41,001 nt of DNA from a virus (IMGVR_UViG_3300022837_000003), one strand, 5' to 3'; positions 6,027 to 41,001 are shown, numbered from the stretch's first letter. Translations and numbers: made by a program. Notes: generated by a model from the letters alone, not told the origin.

Positions 6027-6238
6027 AAATAGAAAACAAAGTAAACTCATTTGAAGCAAAATCAAAAGCATTACCAAGCTTACTAGTAGATAAAGCATAT
6101 GAAATGCTAACTAGTGGAGACAAATTAACAGCAAGTGAACTTAAAGTTTGTTTAGACGCATGTAAAGCCTATGGCGTTGAAACAGAGCCAACACCTGCCA
6201 AATCAATAGTGGACAAATTACCATTTAATGAAGAATAA
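6023..6238 (+). CDS. Small terminase subunit candidate (T7 gp18 position), 71 aa
   Basis: A short helical ORF that overlaps the large terminase start by 11 nt. The assignment is by position only. Confidence 0.4.
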   Translation: MKIENKVNSFEAKSKALPSLLVDKAYEMLTSGDKLTASELKVCLDACKAYGVETEPTPAKSIVDKLPFNEE

Positions 6239-7904
6239 AATAATACCTAATGTAGAACCTAGTGTTAAAAACTTTAAGAATTTTTTATATCTAGCCTGGA
6301 AGCATTTAGCTTTACCAGAGCCTACAGAAATACAATACGACATAGCGGACTTCTTACAAGAGCCAAACAAAAGAATAGTTATAGAAGCGTTTAGAGGAGT
6401 AGGTAAATCGTGGATTACTTCAGCATTCGTATGTCATCAACTTTTACTTAACCCTCAAAGAAACATTCTCGTAGTATCAGCAAGTAAAAACAGAGCTGAT
6501 GACTTTAGCACATTTACACAAAGATTAATTTCTGAAATGCCTATACTTAAACATCTAACTCCTAGGGATGACCAACGTCACTCTAAGATTAGTTTTGATG
6601 TAGCACCCGCAAGAGCTTCTCACGCTCCCTCAGTGAAATCTCTAGGTGTAACATCACAGTTAACAGGTAGTAGAGCAGATTTAATTATCGCTGATGACGT
6701 AGAGTCAGCTAATAACTCACAGACTCAATTAATGAGAGATAGACTAGGTGAGACAGTAAAAGAATTTGATGCAATTATTAAACCCGAAGTAGGACGTATA
6801 GTTTTTCTAGGTACACCACAAACTGAAATGAGTTTATATAACTCTATGGAAGAGCGTGGATACAAGACAAGAATCTGGACAGCTCTATATCCAACTCATA
6901 TACAAAAAATAAACTTAGGTCACAAACTTGCCCCTGTAATTATAGAAAAATTAGACAAAGATAAAAAATTAGAAGGTAAACCCACAGACCCTAAAAGATT
7001 TGATGAGATAGACTTAATGGAAAGAGAAGCGTCTTACGGACGTTCAGGTTTTCAATTACAGTTTATGTTAGATACAACTTTAAGTGACTTAGAGAAGTAT
7101 CCATTAAAACTTAATGACTTAATATGTGTATCTGGGTTGTCTTCATGGAAAGAAGCACCTGCTAAGATACAATGGGCAAGTGGAATAGACCAAATTAAGA
7201 ATATAGATAGTGAATTACCAAATGTAGGCCTAAAAGGTGACTATTGGGTAAGCCCTATGTATACAAGTCCAGAACATGCTAAATTTGAAGGCTCAGTAAT
7301 GTCTATTGACCCCTCTGGTAGAGGTGCTGATATGACAGGGTACTCTGTGGTCAAGATGTTGCATGGAGTCCTTTATTTGACTCACTGTGGAGCTTTAAAG
7401 GGTGGTTATAGTGATGAGACACTAGAGAGACTTAGCCAGATAGCTAAAGAACAAGATGTTAACTATGTGGTTATTGAGAGTAACTTTGGTGATGGTATGG
7501 CTACAGCTTTACTTAAACCTGTAATGTCTCGTATACATCCATGTACTATTGAAGAAGTAAGACATTCTAAACAAAAAGAACTACGTATCATTGACACACT
7601 TGAGCCAGTTATGAACCAACACAGATTAGTGGTTTCTCAAGAAATGATTAAAGAAGATATTAAGTTAGAACCTGACCATCAGTTATTTAAGCAGATGACA
7701 AGGATAACTAAAGATAAAGGGGCCATTAAACACGATGATGCCTTGGATGCTTTAGCTATTGCAGTAGCTTATTGGATTGAGAGAATGGATAGAGACCAAG
7801 AATTGTCATTTAAAGAACATAAAAACGACTTATTACAGGTAGAACTTGATAAGTTCATGGATAGTGCATTAGGTAGTAAGAATAGGAGTAGTAGGTGGAT
7901 TTAA
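6228..7904 (+). CDS. Terminase large subunit (T7 gp19-like), 558 aa
   Basis: Family-typical motifs are present: LALPEPTEIQYDIADFL, Walker A-like FRGVGKSW, Walker B LIIADDVE, and nuclease motifs SIDPSGRGAD and HDDALDALA. Confidence 0.9.
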   Translation: MKNKIIPNVEPSVKNFKNFLYLAWKHLALPEPTEIQYDIADFLQEPNKRIVIEAFRGVGKSWITSAFVCHQLLLNPQRNILVVSASKNRADDFSTFTQRLISEMPILKHLTPRDDQRHSKISFDVAPARASHAPSVKSLGVTSQLTGSRADLIIADDVESANNSQTQLMRDRLGETVKEFDAIIKPEVGRIVFLGTPQTEMSLYNSMEERGYKTRIWTALYPTHIQKINLGHKLAPVIIEKLDKDKKLEGKPTDPKRFDEIDLMEREASYGRSGFQLQFMLDTTLSDLEKYPLKLNDLICVSGLSSWKEAPAKIQWASGIDQIKNIDSELPNVGLKGDYWVSPMYTSPEHAKFEGSVMSIDPSGRGADMTGYSVVKMLHGVLYLTHCGALKGGYSDETLERLSQIAKEQDVNYVVIESNFGDGMATALLKPVMSRIHPCTIEEVRHSKQKELRIIDTLEPVMNQHRLVVSQEMIKEDIKLEPDHQLFKQMTRITKDKGAIKHDDALDALAIAVAYWIERMDRDQELSFKEHKNDLLQVELDKFMDSALGSKNRSSRWI

Positions 7905-7906
7905 TA

Positions 7907-7926
7907 GGTACCCTTATTAGAACCAG
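7907..7926 (+). promoter_or_regulatory. Putative phage-RNAP promoter, copy 1 (phiOR-like position after terminase)
   Basis: GGTACCCTTATTAGAACCAG belongs to the five-copy motif (G/A)(T/G)ACCCC-N-TATTAGAA(C/G)(C/G). Over 7907-7940 it resembles 13085-13117 (GGTACCC(C)TATTAGAACCA..GGGGCTA(A/G)ATGTC). Confidence 0.45.
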
Positions 7927-7983
7927 TGGGGCTAGATGTCCCTATAGGTATACTAGCAACGCACACCACCTTATATCACACAC

Positions 7984-8020
7984 AAGGAGACTATATGTTA
8001 CCTAAGGAGACTATATGTTA
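7984..8020 (+). repeat. Tandem direct repeat, 2 x AAGGAGACTATATGTTA (20-bp period)
   Basis: Exact 17-mers lie at 7984-8000 and 8004-8020 in the non-coding region after terminase. Confidence 0.9.
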
Positions 8021-8280
8021 ATTGAAGTACTACTATTGGGTTACTTACCCCTTATTATCTTACGCAAAGCCATACATTTTGGTAGAAAAATCCGACAGGG
8101 TATCACTATACTAGGCGCGGCCTGACGCCCCCGTAGGCCTCTTTGTTCTTCTTTTGTTCTCCTCTTTTATTAAGGTTTCAATCGGTTGTTATAACCGTTG
8201 CTTTAGTTCTCTTTTTGTTTTTTAAATGTTTTATGCTTCTCTTTCTAGTGGGGCCTATTTTTTTTCATGAGTCTTTAAAC

Positions 8281-8512
8281 TTAGAGACAACACCAGGCAA
8301 CACCAGGCAACACCAGGCAACACCAGGCAACGCCAGGCAACCAGGGGCCACAACCTAACGCCAGGCAACCAGGGCAACACCAGGCAACATAGAGACAACC
8401 ACGGGCAACCAGGGGCCACAACCTAAGGCAACACGCCAGGCAACATAGAGACAACGCCAGGGCCAGGCTCAATAGATATAAAGACAAGAGCCGCCAGGCC
8501 ACGCCAGGCAAC
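8281..8512 (+). repeat. GC-rich, almost T-free short-repeat array (CCAGGCAA units); candidate genome-terminus / packaging repeats
   Basis: There are nine exact CCAGGCAA copies. Five sit at a strict 10-bp spacing (8293-8340) and the others start at 8361, 8380, 8436 and 8504, with degenerate units (CCAGGGCAA, CCACGGGCAA) in between. Higher-order duplicates are CAACCAGGGGCCACAACCTAA x2 and CAACATAGAGACAAC x2. The array sits between the terminase gene and the early genes. Confidence 0.9.
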
Positions 8513-8595
8513 AGCTCAATATTAAAGATATTCAATTAAATATTTATAAATCTAAATTTTACGGCTTAGGGGTTACATCATGATTTTAAATCAAT

Positions 8596-8628
8596 AGGCC
8601 TTAAAACGCTTCTTAGGGCCTTTTTTTT
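8596..8628 (+). terminator. Rho-independent terminator-like hairpin with a T8 run
   Basis: AGGCCTTAA-aacgcttc-TTAGGGCCT (stem with one bulge) is followed directly by TTTTTTTT (8621-8628). Confidence 0.55.
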
Positions 8629-8906
8629 CGTGTGATTTGCTTAAATATCCATATTATTAACTAAATGACATTGTAATTAGTGTATTAATCTTAATTATTC
8701 TATTTAGTGGGTCATTTACTTGTTGCAATTTGTTTTTAATTTCTATAAAAATTCAGGGTACTCGTACTATAAAGAAATAAAACATAAATGCTTTTTAGTG
8801 GTTTCGAGACCGGTGACCGATGTCACTGTTACAACGGTTTAAAACTGATGTGTTAAGCGAGTGACAATAAACGCTTTAATCTTTTTAAAGTCTTACATAG
8901 TTGTTT

Positions 8907-8936
8907 AAATTCCAGGGCCTACATAGTGAGAGCGTG
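8907..8936. repeat. Left arm of the 30-bp inverted repeat flanking a two-gene cassette
   Basis: AAATTCCAGGGCCTACATAGTGAGAGCGTG; its reverse complement matches 9529-9558 at 29/30 positions. Confidence 0.9.
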
Positions 8937-8967
8937 GGCAATCAATAAGAAAACAGAAAAGGAACCT

Positions 8968-9186
8968 ATGAAAACATATGCAATTAAAGTTGATACGCAA
9001 AACCTTAGTAAGTCGTTTTATTTTTTTGAAAAAGAAAAACTAAACTACACGCAAGCGTTACACGAACTAGAAAAACACCAAAACAAATATAATAATATGC
9101 TTAAAAATAAGATTGAGCCGGTTATATATGACGATAGAAACCGAGCTGTAAGAGTTCGTAAAATGTACATAGTTAAGAACTCTTAA
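8968..9186 (+). CDS. Early hypothetical protein (72 aa)
   Basis: ATG 8968 is preceded by the leader ACAGAAAAGGAACCT. The track's GTG start at 8926 lies inside the inverted-repeat arm. No recognisable motif. Confidence 0.55.
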   Translation: MKTYAIKVDTQNLSKSFYFFEKEKLNYTQALHELEKHQNKYNNMLKNKIEPVIYDDRNRAVRVRKMYIVKNS

Positions 9187-9219
9187 ATATTAACAACTAA
9201 ACAGAAAAAGGAAAACACT

Positions 9220-9513
9220 ATGAGTAAATCTATAAATAATATCTTTGTATTTAAACCAACGCCGTCAATTAATCACCAGGGCAATATAAAAAGACCACAC
9301 GTTGAAACGCTAACGGTTAACCACCTTAAGCCAATTTTTAATGATAAGAACCCGCAAGCTTGCTTTGATAATGCAATTAAAAAAAAGGTGTTTACAGAAA
9401 AGGAAGTACTAAGTGATAATTATATTATGTATATGTGTAGCGATAATAATTTTGACTATTTTAAAAGCAAGTTAACAAAAACAAAATACCAGGTTAAGCG
9501 GTCAAACGTTTAA
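9220..9513 (+). CDS. Early hypothetical protein (97 aa)
   Basis: Preceded by the conserved leader ACAGAAAAAGGAAAACACT-ATG (9201-9222). Confidence 0.6.
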   Translation: MSKSINNIFVFKPTPSINHQGNIKRPHVETLTVNHLKPIFNDKNPQACFDNAIKKKVFTEKEVLSDNYIMYMCSDNNFDYFKSKLTKTKYQVKRSNV

Positions 9514-9528
9514 CACTCTTTAAACTCT

Positions 9529-9558
9529 CACGCTCTCACTTTGTAGGCCCTGGAATTT
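9529..9558. repeat. Right arm of the 30-bp inverted repeat
   Basis: CACGCTCTCACTTTGTAGGCCCTGGAATTT pairs with 8907-8936 with a single mismatch. Confidence 0.9.
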
Positions 9559-9586
9559 TCACTAGTTAGACACTTTAAGAATAACC

Positions 9587-9663
9587 AGACTTTAAACCTA
9601 TTCACAAAGAGTAGGCTTAAAGACTTTTTATTAAGTCACACACAAACAAACAATGGAGACACA
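9587..9663 (+). repeat. Repeated intergenic element A (hairpin, T-run, CA-rich leader) upstream of ardA
   Basis: AGACTTTAAACCTATTCACAAAGAGTAGGCTTAAAGACTTTTTATTAAGTCACACACAAAC...GGAGACACA-ATG is roughly 75% identical to 10225-10311. Confidence 0.75.
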
Positions 9664-10215
9664 ATGCAAACAAACACAATTAAAAAAGATGAGTTGAGCA
9701 AAGTTGATAAAGTTGAAAAATCTAAAATCTATGTTGCTTGCTTATCTTCTTATAATTCTGGAATACTGTCCGGCGCATGGATTGAACCAAAGACAGACAA
9801 AGACGCACTAGAAGCACAGATTGCGGAAGTTCTTAAAGCGTCACCGGCCCCAGACGCCGAAGAGTACGCAATTCACGACTATGACAACTTTCCTAATTTA
9901 GGAGAATATCCAGATTTAGAAAAAGTAATTGAAGTTGTTGAAGCAATTAAATTGCACGGAGTGAAAGCTGTTGAAGGCTTCATTGAACATTGGTCAGTTG
10001 AAGACCTTGAACATTTTGAAGACGCTTTTCACGGTACTTATGACACCTTCAAAGAGTTTGCCGAAGATTACGCCGAAGATTGTATTCTTGTTGACTGTCC
10101 AGAGCATATTAAAAACTACATTGATTATAAGCAAATAGAACACGAATTGACATTTGATTATATGGAATGCAAGGCGGACGGCTACAAAGTTCATATCTTT
10201 AATAAAAATTGGTAA
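9664..10215 (+). CDS. ardA: ArdA-family anti-restriction protein (DNA mimic), 183 aa
   Basis: The N-terminal IYVACLSSYNSGILSGAWIEP...EEYAIHDYDNFPNLGEY matches the ArdA family hallmark as I recall it. The protein is very D/E-rich. It occupies an early-gene position analogous to T7 gene 0.3 (Ocr). Confidence 0.8.
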   Translation: MQTNTIKKDELSKVDKVEKSKIYVACLSSYNSGILSGAWIEPKTDKDALEAQIAEVLKASPAPDAEEYAIHDYDNFPNLGEYPDLEKVIEVVEAIKLHGVKAVEGFIEHWSVEDLEHFEDAFHGTYDTFKEFAEDYAEDCILVDCPEHIKNYIDYKQIEHELTFDYMECKADGYKVHIFNKNW

Positions 10216-10224
10216 ATCAAAAAC

Positions 10225-10311
10225 AGACTTAAAGCCTATTTACACAGGGTAGGCTTTGAGACTTTTTTTATAAAGTCATACAAACACTAACAAACACACA
10301 GAGGAGACGCA
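10225..10311 (+). repeat. Repeated intergenic element B (hairpin, T-run, CA-rich leader)
   Basis: The stem CTTAAAGCCTA / TAGGCTTTGAG (11 bp including one G-U) is followed by ACTTTTTTTAT and a CA-rich leader ending GAGGAGACGCA-ATG. Confidence 0.75.
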
Positions 10312-10701
10312 ATGCTACAAAATGAAATCAAGCAATTCACGATTCTCGGAAAAGATGTAATAAATTGTAAATATGAGCCTACAAACAAGGGTAAGCAATA
10401 TTTTACTTTCAAACCTTTAAGCGGTGTATCAAACAAAAAGAAATTTTTTGATGACCTTTTTAATTGGTTTGAAGTTTTTGTACCTAGTAAAGACGCTGAA
10501 AAAATACAATTCAAATTACAAACTTGTAATTATAATATAAATAATAATAAGGTTTCAATTTTAAGTTTATTAAAAAACCTTAAAAAGCTGAAAGCACATC
10601 ATTTCAATGATTGGGACTTGCATGAGTTTCTAGGCGGTGATGAGTTTTATATCTATTTGATGGCAAACAGTAACGTAGTAGAGTTTCCATTAAAAAACTA
10701 A
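10312..10701 (+). CDS. Early hypothetical protein (129 aa)
   Basis: Good RBS (GAGGAG) and co-directional with its neighbours. No recognisable motif. Confidence 0.6.
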   Translation: MLQNEIKQFTILGKDVINCKYEPTNKGKQYFTFKPLSGVSNKKKFFDDLFNWFEVFVPSKDAEKIQFKLQTCNYNINNNKVSILSLLKNLKKLKAHHFNDWDLHEFLGGDEFYIYLMANSNVVEFPLKN

Positions 10702-11588: not shown

Positions 11589-11921
11589 ATGAGCGGACTT
11601 AAAATGTTATCAGCGATACAGAAATTTCGAAAGTATGACGCTGACATACAAAGTCAAACAATCGCAATTTTTCTTTATGTTGCAATACATAGTCAGGGAA
11701 AATTTGCTGATACGGGAGTACCAATGACAGCTATTGCAGATGACTTAGACATGGCTCAGTCAAGTGTAAGTCGTAACGTTTCAATACTTGCAAAGTGGAA
11801 GTGGAATAGAAGCGAAGGGTTAAATTTTGTGGAAACAAGAGAAGACCCTATGGAACGTAGAAGAAAATTAGTTAGTCTAACAAATCGTGGGAAACGTCTT
11901 TATGATTCTGTTAACAACTAA
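11589..11921 (+). CDS. MarR-like winged-helix transcriptional regulator (110 aa), candidate lysogeny regulator
   Basis: The HTH-like segment is MTAIADDLDMAQSSVSRNVSIL. The wing region REDPMERRRKLVSLTNRGKRLY is typical of MarR-family proteins. The gene lies directly upstream of the integrase. Confidence 0.65.
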   Translation: MSGLKMLSAIQKFRKYDADIQSQTIAIFLYVAIHSQGKFADTGVPMTAIADDLDMAQSSVSRNVSILAKWKWNRSEGLNFVETREDPMERRRKLVSLTNRGKRLYDSVNN

Positions 11922-11961
11922 TCAACCTTATAGCTTTAAGGTATGGAAAGGAGGTATATAC

Positions 11962-12861
11962 ATGAAGAAAGCTAATCCAAAAGAACTTCGGCAAGTTTTT
12001 AATAGAGTCTGCAAAATGCGATGGGACGAAGGCAAAGATGAGAGTGTCATCGGCCGTGGACTTAAAGTTATTGAATACTTTAAAGAAGATACTTTTATAA
12101 ATGACATTGATGAAAATGATATAGACGGTCTGGTTGAACATTTAAGAAATAGAAATCTTAAAAATGGTTCGATTAATAGATACTTGTCTGCTTTATCTAC
12201 GATGTTAACATTCTGTCAGCAACGATGGAGTGTTTACAAATTAGAACGAAAGCCATTTATCACCTGGTTAAAAGAACCTAGTCATGAGTTAAGGTACTTG
12301 TCGGATAAAGAACAGCAAACTTTAATTAGTTTGTTTACGGAATGGGGTATGGATGATGAGCGAGATTTTTTTCTATTGTTAATGGATATAGGATGTCGTT
12401 TGTCTGAACTACAACGGTTAAAAGTTAGTCAAGTGTTTGGTGATAGAGTCACTTTATACGACACTAAGAATAATGAACCGAGAGGCGTACCCTTGACTGC
12501 TAGAGCGCAGAAAATTATAAAACGTTTTTGTTTAGATAAAAGACCTGAACAAAAATTGTTTAGTGATTTTCCAAAATGGAGACCAAACTCTGCGTGGCGT
12601 AAGCTACGTAAAGCAATGGGCCTACAAGGCGATGCACGTTTTACAATACATGCTTGTCGTAGAACATTGATTTCCAATTTGATTAACAATGGTGTTCCAG
12701 AAAAGTTTACTCAAGAATGGGTGGGCCACAGTGACCCACGTATGATTGGTAAGTACGCTAGAATTTTAAGTGTGAACTTAAAAAACTACGTAAATGTTCT
12801 TGAACCCACTACTGGGATTGAAGCAACGGACGAAGACAAACCGTTGTTAAAAACCTCTTAG
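11962..12861 (+). CDS. int: Tyrosine recombinase / phage integrase (299 aa)
   Basis: I prefer ATG 11962 (RBS GGAAAGGAGG) over track start 11887. Catalytic-motif candidates are GCRLSEL (Arg box), HACRRTLISNL (HxxR) and GHSDPRMIGKYARI (Tyr). Confidence 0.85.
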   Translation: MKKANPKELRQVFNRVCKMRWDEGKDESVIGRGLKVIEYFKEDTFINDIDENDIDGLVEHLRNRNLKNGSINRYLSALSTMLTFCQQRWSVYKLERKPFITWLKEPSHELRYLSDKEQQTLISLFTEWGMDDERDFFLLLMDIGCRLSELQRLKVSQVFGDRVTLYDTKNNEPRGVPLTARAQKIIKRFCLDKRPEQKLFSDFPKWRPNSAWRKLRKAMGLQGDARFTIHACRRTLISNLINNGVPEKFTQEWVGHSDPRMIGKYARILSVNLKNYVNVLEPTTGIEATDEDKPLLKTS

Positions 12862-12923: not shown

Positions 12924-12965
12924 GCGCTCTTAGCTCAGTTGGATAGAGCATCGGTTTTCTAAACC
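12924..12965 (+). other. attP core candidate: 5' half of a tRNA-Arg(UCU)-like sequence (not a complete tRNA)
   Basis: GCGCTCT-TA-GCTCAGTTGGATAGAGC-A-TCGGT-TTTCTAA-ACC reads as acceptor 5' strand, D-arm, anticodon stem 5' strand, loop with anticodon TCT, and 3 nt of return strand, after which the similarity stops. No T-arm follows. ACCATCGGA occurs on both sides (12904-12912 and 12983-12991). Confidence 0.6.
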
Positions 12966-13063
12966 CTAGGTATCTAAAGCCCACCATCGGACTGTTTCGA
13001 TTACTATTAAGGTATACCAACACAACAACGCTATCCAACACACATAAAAATTTTTAAGTTCAC

Positions 13064-13103
13064 CAACCCACTAAAGAGATGATTGGTACCCCTATTAGAA
13101 CCA
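13064..13103 (+). promoter_or_regulatory. 40-bp element: T3-like box CAACCCACTAAAGAG plus putative phage promoter copy 2, upstream of the RNAP gene
   Basis: CAACCCACTAAAGAGATGATTGGTACCCCTATTAGAACCA is 37/40 identical to 15595-15634. Confidence 0.5.
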
Positions 13104-13144
13104 AGGGGCTAAATGTCTACCTAACTAACTAAAGGAAATACACT

Positions 13145-15592
13145 ATGGATAATACAAAAGGAATTACTTTACCGTTCTCTATTCTCAAAGAACAACTAGA
13201 CCTGGAGAAGGATATGAGAGACCGAGGAATAAACAGGTTTAGAAAAAGGTTATTAGAACACAAGCAGAGAGGTGAGGAGTCTTTTACTAATTATGGTAAG
13301 ACTCTCTTATCAAACTCAATCAGACCCTTCTCAGAAGGTATAAAGGCCTATTGTGAGGAAGGTCACAAAATCCCAGGAGTTCAACCAATATCTAGAAAAC
13401 TACTATCTTTATTAGAACCAGACACAATGGCTTTGATAGCTTCAAAGTCTATTATTAACTGTATTACTATTTCTAGAAGACTAACAAGTGCTGCTATAAA
13501 TGTAGCAAGTAAAGTGGAAGATGAAATATCTCTTAGGGTATTTGAAGAAAGTAAACCTGAACACTATGGAGTTGTTAAAGCTGATTTAGAAGGTCGTTCA
13601 GCGGGCTACCAATACAAGAGACGTAAATTAAGAGAATCAGCACAAAAAAATAACATTGAGTGGGCACAGTGGACAAGAAGCGAAAAAGTTCATGTAGGTT
13701 ACAAACTTATAGAATTAATGTGTGTTCATACTGGACTTTGCGACATTCAAACTGTGTTTATTAAAAAACGTAGAGAAAAGAAATTAATACCAACAGCAAA
13801 AACTTTAGAATGGATTAATAGTAGAAATGATTTTCTAGAAGTTCTTGCTCCAGAATATTTTCCAACTATCGTTGCGCCAAGACGTTGGGAGGAAGGTAGT
13901 ACAAAAGGTGGTGGTTATTACTCAAGACATATCAAACCATTAACCTTAGTTAAATATCGTAATAGAAAAAACTTAGCTGATTTAGAAAATGTAAAAATGC
14001 CTTTAGTTTATAAAGCTGTAAATGCACAACAAGATACACCTTATAAAATAAATTTATTTATCTTGAATGTTTTAGATAAAGCCTGGGAGAAAAATATTGC
14101 TCTTGGTGGTTTACCTTTAGCTGAACTTATGGACTTACCAAGTAAGCCCCATGATATTGAGACTAATAAAATAGCAAGACAGCTATTTAGAATAGAGTCT
14201 GTAAAAATACATACTGATAATGCTAGACAGAAATCAAAAAGATTATTGTTTGCAAAAGTTAGATGGATGGCACACATGATTAAAGAAAAAATATTTTATC
14301 ATGCACATACTTTAGATTTTAGGTCTAGATGTTATCAAGTTACAAATTATCTAAACATACAAGGTGTTGACTTTGCAAAAGCATTACATCTTTTAGGTAC
14401 AGGTAAAAAAATCACCAAAGAGAATAGAGGTGATTATTGGTTAGCTGTTACTGGTGCTGCATTGTTTGGTGTGGATAAAGTTACAAGAGAAGAGCAAGTT
14501 AAATGGGTTGATGATAACTTAGAAATGTTTCAAAAAATACAGGCTGACCCTTTTACAAATAGGGAGTGGGAGAATGCAGACAAACCTTTTCAATTTCTTG
14601 CATGGGCCAATGAGTGGGCTTCATTTAAAGCTGTAGGCTACGGTTATCTTAGTACTTTTATCTGTAACCAGGATGGAAGTTGTAACGGGATACAACACTA
14701 TAGTGGGATTTTAAAAAATACCAAAACAGCTAGAGCGGTTAACTTAGGTAAATCTGAAAAACCAGAAGATGTTTACACCGTGGTTAAAGACGCTGTCATT
14801 GCTAATTTAAAAATAATGACGGAAGACCCTTATGCAAAACTTTGGTTACAGTTTGGAGTAAAACGTACAACTGTAAAAAGAGCAATCATGACTAGTCCTT
14901 ACGGTTCGACTAGATATTCTTGTAGTGATTTTGTTGATGAGGATTTAGTTAAAAGAAAAGACCAGGGGGACGAACATCCATTTGGTAGCTCATCATTTCA
15001 GGCTTGCACTTTTTTATCAGGTGTTATCTGGGATAGTATGGGTGAAGTTTTATCATCTGCTAGATTAGGTATGGCGTTTTTACAAAACTGTGCAAAAGTT
15101 TTAGCTAAAGCGGGACACAGAATACGTTGGATAAATCCAGTTGGCTTTCCAGTCATTCAAGATTATCCAGAGTTTAAATCTATGAGAGTTAAAACTAGAA
15201 TGTTTGGTGAAATAATAAAACCAAGAATAAATGTTGAAACAGAGAAATACTCTGTGATTAAAGCCTCTAACGGGCTGCCACCGAATTTTATCCACTCACA
15301 AGATTCGGCACATATGATGATGGTTGTATGCAAGGCTTACGACAAAGGCATTTCTCATTTTTGTAATGTTCATGACTCTTTTGGAACATTAGCTGCGGAC
15401 TCACAAGTTCTTGCAGATACAATCAGAGAAACATTTGTAGAGTTGTATAATGATACATGTCCACTAGAGGATTTTAAATTATCTATACAACCCTCACTTA
15501 CAGAAGAGCAACGTAAAAAATTACCAACTGTTCCAGAAAAAGGTGACTTCAATATACATGAGGTTTTACAGTCTGAGTTCTTTTTTGCGTAA
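13145..15592 (+). CDS. Single-subunit DNA-directed RNA polymerase (T7 gp1-like), 815 aa
   Basis: T7-family motifs are present: PNFIHSQDSAH, HDSFGT and a C-terminal ...SEFFFA (T7 ends FAFA). Length is typical of marine T7-like phages. Confidence 0.92.
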   Translation: MDNTKGITLPFSILKEQLDLEKDMRDRGINRFRKRLLEHKQRGEESFTNYGKTLLSNSIRPFSEGIKAYCEEGHKIPGVQPISRKLLSLLEPDTMALIASKSIINCITISRRLTSAAINVASKVEDEISLRVFEESKPEHYGVVKADLEGRSAGYQYKRRKLRESAQKNNIEWAQWTRSEKVHVGYKLIELMCVHTGLCDIQTVFIKKRREKKLIPTAKTLEWINSRNDFLEVLAPEYFPTIVAPRRWEEGSTKGGGYYSRHIKPLTLVKYRNRKNLADLENVKMPLVYKAVNAQQDTPYKINLFILNVLDKAWEKNIALGGLPLAELMDLPSKPHDIETNKIARQLFRIESVKIHTDNARQKSKRLLFAKVRWMAHMIKEKIFYHAHTLDFRSRCYQVTNYLNIQGVDFAKALHLLGTGKKITKENRGDYWLAVTGAALFGVDKVTREEQVKWVDDNLEMFQKIQADPFTNREWENADKPFQFLAWANEWASFKAVGYGYLSTFICNQDGSCNGIQHYSGILKNTKTARAVNLGKSEKPEDVYTVVKDAVIANLKIMTEDPYAKLWLQFGVKRTTVKRAIMTSPYGSTRYSCSDFVDEDLVKRKDQGDEHPFGSSSFQACTFLSGVIWDSMGEVLSSARLGMAFLQNCAKVLAKAGHRIRWINPVGFPVIQDYPEFKSMRVKTRMFGEIIKPRINVETEKYSVIKASNGLPPNFIHSQDSAHMMMVVCKAYDKGISHFCNVHDSFGTLAADSQVLADTIRETFVELYNDTCPLEDFKLSIQPSLTEEQRKKLPTVPEKGDFNIHEVLQSEFFFA

Positions 15593-15594
15593 AT

Positions 15595-15634
15595 CAACCC
15601 ACTAAAGAGGTAATTAGTACCCCTATTAGAACCA
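15595..15634 (+). promoter_or_regulatory. 40-bp element: T3-like box plus putative phage promoter copy 3 (T7 phi1.1 / primary-origin position)
   Basis: CAACCCACTAAAGAGGTAATTAGTACCCCTATTAGAACCA begins 3 nt after the RNAP stop and is followed by an A-rich tract. Confidence 0.5.
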
Positions 15635-15645
15635 AAGGAATAAAT

Positions 15646-40366: not shown

Positions 40367-41001
40367 ATGGCTAATTCATTTGTAAGATATACAGGTAATG
40401 GTGCTACAACTGCTTATTCTATATCATATTCATATAGAGATGCTGCAGATTTGAGTGTCACTATCAATGGTGTCGCTACAACGTCATATACCTTAAACGG
40501 TGCAGGAAGCACATTAACTTTTGACACGGCACCCGTCAATGCGAGTTCAATCGAAATTCGTAGAAAGACTTCCCAAACTTCAAGATTAACAGATTACGCA
40601 GCAGGTTCAGTTCTTACTGAAAATGATTTAGATACAGATAGTGAACAAGCATTCTTTATGTCACAAGAAGCTATTGATGACGCAGGTGATGTTATCAAAT
40701 TATCAAATACAGATTTTCAATGGGACACTCAAAGTAAAAGATTAAAAAATGTTGCAGACCCAGTAGACAACACAGATGCAGTAAACAAACAATTCATATC
40801 CACAAACTTACCAAACATCACAACAGTATCAGGCATAAGTGCAGACGTTACAACGGTTGCAGGTATTTCAGCAGATGTAACTTCAGTTGCAAATGATGCT
40901 ACAGATATAGGTTTAGTTGCTACTAACATAGGTTCAGTAAATACAGTTGCCGCAGATATTACAAAAGTAATTGCTGTAGCTAATGATTTAGCTGAAGCAG
41001 T
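40367..41001 (+). CDS. Tail fibre protein (T7 gp17-like), N-terminal part; continues at window base 1
   Basis: RBS AAAGGAG. The N-terminal domain parallels T7 gp17 (MANSFVRYTG...IEIRRKTSQTSRLTDYAAGSVLTENDLDTD versus T7 ...IELRRVTSTTDRLVDFTDGSILRAYDLN). The ORF stays open to the window end. Confidence 0.88.
   Translation, partial: MANSFVRYTGNGATTAYSISYSYRDAADLSVTINGVATTSYTLNGAGSTLTFDTAPVNASSIEIRRKTSQTSRLTDYAAGSVLTENDLDTDSEQAFFMSQEAIDDAGDVIKLSNTDFQWDTQSKRLKNVADPVDNTDAVNKQFISTNLPNITTVSGISADVTTVAGISADVTSVANDATDIGLVATNIGSVNTVAADITKVIAVANDLAEA

Follow-up and report, generated by a model that had tools for sequence, protein, structure and literature searches.

SAR11 bacteria and their podoviruses are among the most abundant cells and viruses of the ocean, and to our knowledge almost nothing is known about early-gene expression in pelagiphages. 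In the early messenger RNA (mRNA) of bacteriophage T7, the RNase III sites R0.3 and R0.5 lie around gene 0.3 and are formed by separate local hairpins with internal loops, one for each cut. The present study concerns IMGVR_UViG_3300022837_000003, a 41,001-nt stretch of viral DNA (the whole of which is referred to as the window), and in particular a 30-bp inverted repeat at 8907-9558 that brackets two small genes. Pairing between the 5' and 3' untranslated regions (UTRs) of bacterial mRNAs has been described for icaR of Staphylococcus aureus (PMC3868564) and hbs of Bacillus subtilis (PMC5737220), and the icaR duplex is a target of RNase III (PMC3868564). In the PeSL (promoter-early / stem-loop) cassettes of T4-type phages, a promoter and a local terminator hairpin recur as direct repeats, and these cassettes act via DNA recombination (PMC2839356, PMC4122927). 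T7 is also described as boosting RNase III through its 0.7 kinase (PMC4858673). Comparison of the bracket with related phage loci and with host ribosomal RNA (rRNA) operons leads us to regard it as probably a long-range mRNA helix that imitates the host rRNA-processing stalk and would be recognised by RNase III.

The window is a circularly closed assembly, with bases 1-127 identical to 40875-41001 and a genome size of 40,874 bp, and represents a complete HTVC019P-type, T7-like podovirus of SAR11 (a pelagiphage). All genes lie on the + strand and the bracket encloses the first early genes of the phage. A repeat search confirmed what the initial annotation had reported, namely arms at 8907-8936 and 9529-9558 that are complementary at 29 of 30 positions (97%) with 592 nt between them. 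The claim that such a repeat is not expected by chance in 41 kb also held, as an 18-nt core (up to 3 mismatches) was present exactly twice compared with 0.00 expected from 100 shuffles; the arms are the only strong short-range inverted repeat of the genome. Exactly two small open reading frames (ORFs) on the + strand are enclosed (8968-9186 and 9220-9513), each preceded by the shared leader ACAGAAAA(A)GGAA. The sole mismatch within the 30-nt arms is T(8924)/T(9541), and pairing is extended inward by a G·U and a G-C pair to 8938/9527. Read on the + strand, the left (5') arm (8907-8938) is thus composed of an outer 17 nt (8907-8923), the mismatched U at 8924 and an inner 14 nt (8925-8938, including these last two pairs), and the right (3') arm (9527-9558) of an inner 14 nt (9527-9540), the mismatched U at 9541 and an outer 17 nt (9542-9558). 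The duplexfold program predicted 17 bp, a U·U mismatch and 14 bp for the two arms, with a dG of -60 kcal/mol, and neither arm folds on itself. Folding of the transcript, which had been suggested as a check, recovered the helix in both the minimum free energy and the centroid structure of a 751-nt RNA. The 5' UTR within the bracket (8939-8967, + strand) carries the Shine-Dalgarno leader ACAGAAAAGGAA at 8953-8964, which is free of the helix.

Related loci were collected by means of the 97-aa product of the second ORF (9 phage records and 26 IMG/VR loci) and were supplemented with two-arm contigs from a metagenome-wide scan with the arm core. The nearest sequenced relatives are the Pelagibacter phages Bylgja, Himinglaeva, Unn, Hroenn, HTVC120P and uvMED S46-C10, with about 72-77% identity in the bracket region. 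In every relative that has the gene at this genome position, the homologue of the second ORF was found inside arms. The bracket was detected in all six sequenced phages that were checked (Bylgja, S46-C10, HTVC120P, HTVC134P, HTVC309P and S42-C7), in 21 of the 24 IMG/VR core-gene loci with enough flank (scores of 41-62, against shuffled maxima of at most 37) and in 11 two-arm metagenome contigs. Three sequence families with one architecture (13-17 bp, one U·U mismatch, 9-14 bp) could be distinguished: arm types A-C, reading AATTCCAGGGCCTACA[T]AGTGA(G/C)(A/G)GC... with the mismatched T in brackets; type D, reading TGAAGGGCCTTAA[T]AGTGAGAGC and found in HTVC309P and HTVC134P; and type E, reading AAACG-ATTAAAGGCGTTTAAT[T]GAAGGCTTGA and found in the Sieqvirus S42-C7 and many contigs. 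The helix layouts were 17-U·U-14 in type A, 16-U·U-14 in type B, 13-U·U-9 in type D and 16-U·U-10 in type E. Beyond the arms, a bulged outward continuation to about 8882/9581 can be drawn, in which the left side (8882-8906, + strand) pairs with the right side (TCACTAGTTAGACACTTTAAGAA, 9559-9581, + strand); this outer extension is weakly supported, being kept in types A-C only and without compensatory changes.

Neither the core gene nor a comparable repeat was found at the equivalent place in the Pelagivirus-genus phages HTVC019P, Jormungand and HTVC131P. No bracket was present at three IMG/VR loci in which a short (64-74 aa) homologue of the core gene occurs in a different phage background, so that the core gene does occur without the helix. 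In this phage lineage, however, the two are always found together at the left end. The short homologues (L098, L101 and L102) contain the conserved C-terminal domain only; a peptide deformylase gene lies upstream in L098, and a radical-SAM/zinc-like ORF of 218 aa lies downstream in the short-homologue background.

The pairing was then considered position by position. A duplexfold run on flanks of 400 x 700 nt paired everything, and helix-limited alignments were used instead; the formal pair count was limited to types A-D because the MAFFT alignment of all three families shifted type E by one column, and type E was tabulated by a script anchored on the mismatch. The helix positions common to all 28 distinct sequences are offsets -13..-1 and +1..+9 from the mismatch pair, and 18 of these 22 positions are occupied by two or more Watson-Crick pair types. 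In the formal count of types A-D, 198 of 198 cells were paired, with six pairs changed on both sides, none changed on one side and none broken. The covariation score of these types was 0.288 versus 0.089, a value of 0.288 being reached by none of 500 shuffles, and sliding the partner by 1-3 columns reduced the pairing to 25-50%. Subtypes of type E differ by co-insertion in both arms (GAATGCTGA versus GAAGGCTTGA), and L091 differs by co-deletion. The bracket is conserved as a structure and not as a sequence.

The departures from perfect pairing are conserved as well. A T opposite a T, i.e. the U·U mismatch, is located at the same place in 28 of 28 sequences, and every type E pair has in addition a U·G (a T/C difference between the arms) and a 1-nt bulge. 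The arms are not homogenised and fixed differences between them are maintained; since gene conversion between DNA repeats would erase such asymmetries, selection on the folded strand is implied. As for the strand, three G·U pairs are embedded in or bordered by pairing (offset -6 in type E, +10 in type B, where HTVC120P has C-G, and +13 in type A). Each of them reads as G·U on the + strand but would become A·C on the other, and no A·C is found in the common core. Few as these events are, all of them point to the + (mRNA) strand as the one that folds.

The enclosed block varies from one to three ORFs over the 28 distinct loci, in which the core gene is constant and other small ORFs stand before or after it. 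The first ATG is located 17-38 nt inside the left arm at these loci, in 27 of 28 sequences the right arm follows the last stop by 7-24 nt, and the Shine-Dalgarno sequences are not sequestered by the helix. The helix thus fits tightly around the coding block while the inner ORFs come and go. The conserved core cargo, present inside every bracket, is ORF2 (9220-9513, + strand), encoding a basic protein of 97 aa (isoelectric point, pI, 9.6) with the conserved pattern ...CFxNAIxKKxF...YIMYMCS...FKSKxTKxxYxVxR. ORF1 (8968-9186, + strand) encodes an accessory basic protein of 72 aa (pI 9.7) without a family match; it is bracketed only in the sub-lineage of the window, and its relatives are also found in other phages, where they stand unbracketed among closely packed small genes. 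The core gene is followed in 20 of 28 brackets, and its end often overlapped, by a gene for a membrane protein of 51-58 aa with one hydrophobic helix (…FALSFALMFLGVIIFIHF…GLIFFKDL; for example, L001 2724-2897 and L008 326-487), which has been lost in the lineage of the window, where the 72-aa ORF1 is carried instead. Searches of Pfam and PHROGs returned no match for ORF1 or ORF2, and the relatives returned by a large protein search with both cargo proteins were all unnamed and from marine metagenomes. AlphaFold gave a model of mediocre quality for the core protein (predicted local distance difference test score, pLDDT, 65), and a Foldseek search of it against PDB gave nothing below E = 1.4, with only faint, untrusted SH3/KOW-like partial matches. 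No relative of the core protein, and hence no prophage copy, was found in a scan of genome contigs.

The host clade is taken to be SAR11, because a tRNA-like attP segment of 42 nt (12924-12965) in the phage is identical in ten Pelagibacteraceae genomes (L111-L120); this segment likely marks the integration target. A canonical RNase III (TIGR02191) was found above the curated cut-off in five of six SAR11 genomes carrying the attB-like tRNA segment. The rRNA operons of Pelagibacterales (L133-L163) were placed beside the phage bracket. The SAR11 16S leader UUUAAGAAGAGAAGUG-U-GGACGGUUAA pairs with the trailer UUGACCGUCC-U-CAUUUCUCUUCUUAAA as 16 bp, a U·U mismatch and 10 bp. This U·U is present in the 16S stalk of 22 of 22 Pelagibacterales genomes belonging to three 16S length classes, between an outer helix of 13-16 bp and an inner helix of 10 bp, and its neighbours co-vary (GUG·U·GGA, GCG·U·GGA and ACG·U·GGG). 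The 23S stalk is built in the same manner from 11-14 bp, a U·U and 10 bp, the mismatch being located exactly 10 bp from the inner end in eight of eight genomes. The phage arms and the host stalks are unrelated in sequence, and what they have in common is the architecture together with the kind and place of the mismatch. The Pelagibacterales leader also contains a boxB-like hairpin, and its boxA, GCU(A/C)UUUAAAA, precedes the 16S stalk by 8-13 nt.

That the helix resembles both rRNA stalks of the host is accounted for most simply by a processing enzyme common to them all, and the initial annotation, which had listed a long-range RNA stem comparable to the stems flanking rRNAs among three possible readings, is supported on this point. 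In the mechanism that we favour, host RNA polymerase would transcribe the entering left end, and the right arm, once emerged, would pair with the left arm across about 590 nt to give 17 bp, U·U and 14 bp, so that the helix closes off the first early translation unit of the phage. RNase III, the endonuclease of the host rRNA stalks, would recognise this helix, and cutting would excise the cassette mRNA with its ends still paired through the inner 9-14 bp and so protected. The same cuts would separate the cassette mRNA from the 5' leader and from the ardA message, the latter gaining its own 5' end, and the first message may in this way be stabilised or uncoupled. A more specific proposal, which we advance tentatively and would put at somewhat below an even chance, is that, in a helix of about 25 bp, a single U·U roughly one helical turn away from the inner end is an identity mark of Pelagibacterales RNase III rRNA substrates. 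This mark would have been copied by a clade of T7-like pelagiphages in at least three sequence guises and without boxA, so that the host rRNA maturation machinery cuts the first early message from the entry transcript. If true, this would be a lineage-specific viral molecular mimicry of an rRNA processing signal.

Several points weigh against the proposed imitation of a processing stalk. Any 30-nt inverted repeat folds in silico on either strand, and the assignment to the + strand depends on just three independent G·U events. The resemblance to the host stalks, striking as it is, is a correlation; there is a slight chance that the agreement in type and position of the mismatch is a coincidence, and U·U is only a putative RNase III determinant in SAR11. 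The three families may share ancestry, in which case the U·U may be one inherited trait. Patterns derived from the host detected no host-like boxA in the 200 nt preceding the arms of types D and E, and about half of the type A-C loci have only a weak GCTTTTTA at -110. In addition, types A-C share 22 invariant nt in the arm core, more sequence conservation than a helix with a purely structural role would require, and a further partner that recognises the sequence may be involved.

This invariance is better accounted for by a + strand helix that acts uncut, either as an end-to-end clamp against 5'-end-dependent and 3' exonucleolytic decay or as a protein-binding platform for autoregulation, an explanation that we judge unlikely. 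The binder would be a phage or host protein, possibly the basic core cargo itself, and the U·U would be a feature for protein recognition or an anti-determinant of RNase III. All structural evidence given above for a processed helix applies equally here, and the invariant core suggests sequence-specific recognition; the strict co-occurrence of bracket and core gene at the locus, with both missing from Pelagivirus phages, and the basic nature of both cargo proteins (pI about 9.7) fit as well. It leaves the likeness to both host stalks, for which a common enzyme is the simplest cause, without such an explanation, no RNA-binding fold or family was detected for the cargo protein, and the short homologues of the core gene occur without any bracket.

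The variation of the accessory ORFs among relatives raises a second alternative, in which the arms are boundaries at the DNA level, i.e. PeSL-like anchors of homologous recombination for the exchange of cassettes between co-infecting pelagiphages, with complementarity being incidental or kept by gene conversion. Recombination around the bracket is suggested by L037 (metagenome contig Ga0302116_1051518, 1080-1170), in which a type-C left arm is joined to a type-D upstream flank (…TAATTAATTAATTTTAATTATGAATATTT…) with the breakpoint at the outer edge of the arm, and by the occurrence of type-C arms with two core-gene alleles, 51% and 81% identical to that of the window. L037 itself arose either by natural recombination or as a chimera of the assembly. 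Anchors of recombination have no need to be inverted copies of one another, the conserved asymmetries (U·U, U·G and the bulge) would be lost through gene conversion, one helix geometry is shared by three unrelated arm sequences, and mosaic breakpoints are also found away from the arms; anchoring of exchange is in our opinion quite improbable as the function of the arms. The earlier suggestion of a swappable module marked by a recombination scar is accordingly upheld in part: accessory ORFs do vary and one recombinant breakpoint falls at an arm edge, whereas the core gene is retained throughout and the covariation of the arms is that of a helix and not of a scar. A pure recombination scar was rejected, as it leaves the complementarity, the covariation and the conserved asymmetries unexplained, even though the mosaicism around the bracket is real. 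A PeSL-type shuffling cassette was likewise rejected, the arms being inverted and not direct, and co-varying as a helix.

Terminal inverted repeats of 30 nt around small genes, in a genome that encodes a tyrosine integrase, are also what a miniature mobile or invertible DNA element would show, whether the arms were the ends of a transposon or of a miniature inverted-repeat transposable element (MITE), inversion sites of the tyrosine integrase, or attC-like halves of an integron-type cassette. This possibility, which the initial annotation had also raised, is very improbable. There is one copy per genome, and every true match in 241 million metagenome records plus IMG/VR was at the same locus with the same flanks, so that no dispersal was seen. 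A 17-mer scan of IMG/VR and the metagenomes for a dispersed MITE-like family returned the arms at this locus only; some 50 further matches, in unrelated contigs rich in GC, were due to chance. Cargo, terminase and early genes always point in one direction, the gene neighbourhood is shared by at least 12 places with the identical protein, and no inverted configuration was found in any phage record, long contig or near-identical contig. The arms contain no internal dyad of the recombinase type, and homologues of the core gene and ORF1 occur elsewhere without arms. TAGTT does stand 4 nt outside each arm, as had been noted, and could be taken as a trace of insertion; it arises, however, as a by-product of the self-complementary ACTAGT that types A-C have in their palindromic outer helix, it is missing in types D and E, and it is therefore not a target-site duplication, in agreement with the earlier observation that no clean one is visible. 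Insertion of the block into an already existing intergenic unit is unsupported, and no empty site was found.

Scarcely credible, finally, is an outward-facing pair of phage RNA polymerase promoters, for which each arm, read outward, offers CTCTCACT(A/T)TGTAGG, in part similar to the promoter cores of the T7 group (T7, T3 and SP6; T7/T3 core CTCACTATAG), in a genome with a T7-like RNA polymerase, since the motif does not recur above chance (25 matches with up to 3 mismatches versus 19.3 expected in the genome), a better candidate, CAACCCACTAAAGAG, flanks the RNA polymerase gene twice, and type E arms lack the CACT core but keep the helix. The better candidate is part of a 64-nt repeat at 13051-13114 and 15582-15645 on either side of that gene, in which CAACCCACTAAAGAG, close to the T3 promoter core, is followed by the hairpin GGTACCCCTATTAGAACCAAGGGG. 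Only two solid copies are present in the genome, with a partial third copy at 7904-7930, and the repeat is probably the promoter of the phage's own RNA polymerase together with a 5' hairpin. Weak T3-like matches (3 mismatches each) were also located on the minus strand at 8700-8714 and 8791-8805, pointing leftward in the non-coding region upstream of the bracket; the T3-like motif has four matches in total versus 1.2 expected by chance, and the two weak leftward ones may mean nothing. A scan for sigma-70 promoters gave no match above shuffles.

The large terminase gene (6228-7904) is followed by a non-coding genome-end region of 1 kb with arrays of the 10-bp CCAGGCAA and then by the bracketed cassette. 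All type A-C loci have a conserved motif, ACG(C/T)T(T/C)TAAT(C/T), 26 nt upstream of the left arm (at 8871-8881 in the window); it bears a vague likeness to boxA (lambda CGCTCTTA) but is one base short, and differs from the boxA of the host. Between the bracket and ardA lies an intergenic module (9583-9648, + strand; second copy at 10221-10286) with a local hairpin, a T-run and a CA-rich part, which does not belong to the helix. A local RNase III hairpin of the T7 type was rejected as an explanation of the arms, which are 592 nt apart and do not self-fold, and the local hairpins at 9583-9648 and 10221-10286 are a different element. The first gene downstream of the bracket is that for the anti-restriction protein ArdA (9664-10215, + strand), and a MarR-like gene, the tyrosine integrase (11887-12861) and the T7-type RNA polymerase (13145-15592) follow. 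Rfam covariance models run over 7900-10400 gave 0 matches at E <= 1, and a literature search on inverted repeats or RNase III in pelagiphages found nothing.

A conserved, co-varying helix that copies the host rRNA stalks offers a concrete hypothesis for how the first message of a pelagiphage is made, in which the virus probably borrows the rRNA-processing enzyme of its host to release that message. The bracket may also serve as a practical marker of the first-expressed genes, probably those for host takeover, in contigs of uncultured pelagiphages.

Among the systems described previously, the PeSL cassettes of T4-type phages resemble the bracket in that small, variable early genes are flanked on either side by a conserved non-coding motif and that there are signs of modular exchange, and are set apart by the mutual complementarity and helix-like covariation of the phage arms. 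The icaR and hbs mRNAs are similar in that both ends of a protein-coding mRNA pair together; their pairings are short and act on the Shine-Dalgarno sequence or the 5' end, whereas the phage helix exceeds 30 bp, leaves the Shine-Dalgarno sequence free and is located inside a polycistronic transcript. The R0.3 and R0.5 sites of T7 correspond in position, as they also belong to a T7-like phage, stand right at the beginning of the early region that the host transcribes, lie on either side of the first early message and are next to an anti-restriction gene, but are formed by separate local hairpins in place of one helix from arms about 600 nt apart. Compared with the host 16S and 23S leader-trailer stalks, which are RNase III substrates, the bracket is phage-encoded, contains 1-3 protein-coding ORFs in a loop of about 300-740 nt instead of 1.5-2.9 kb, and has no boxA upstream. 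Common to both are a long-range helix of about 25-30 bp formed by the sequences that flank the product, and its division into an outer part of 11-17 bp, a single U·U mismatch and an inner part of 9-14 bp.

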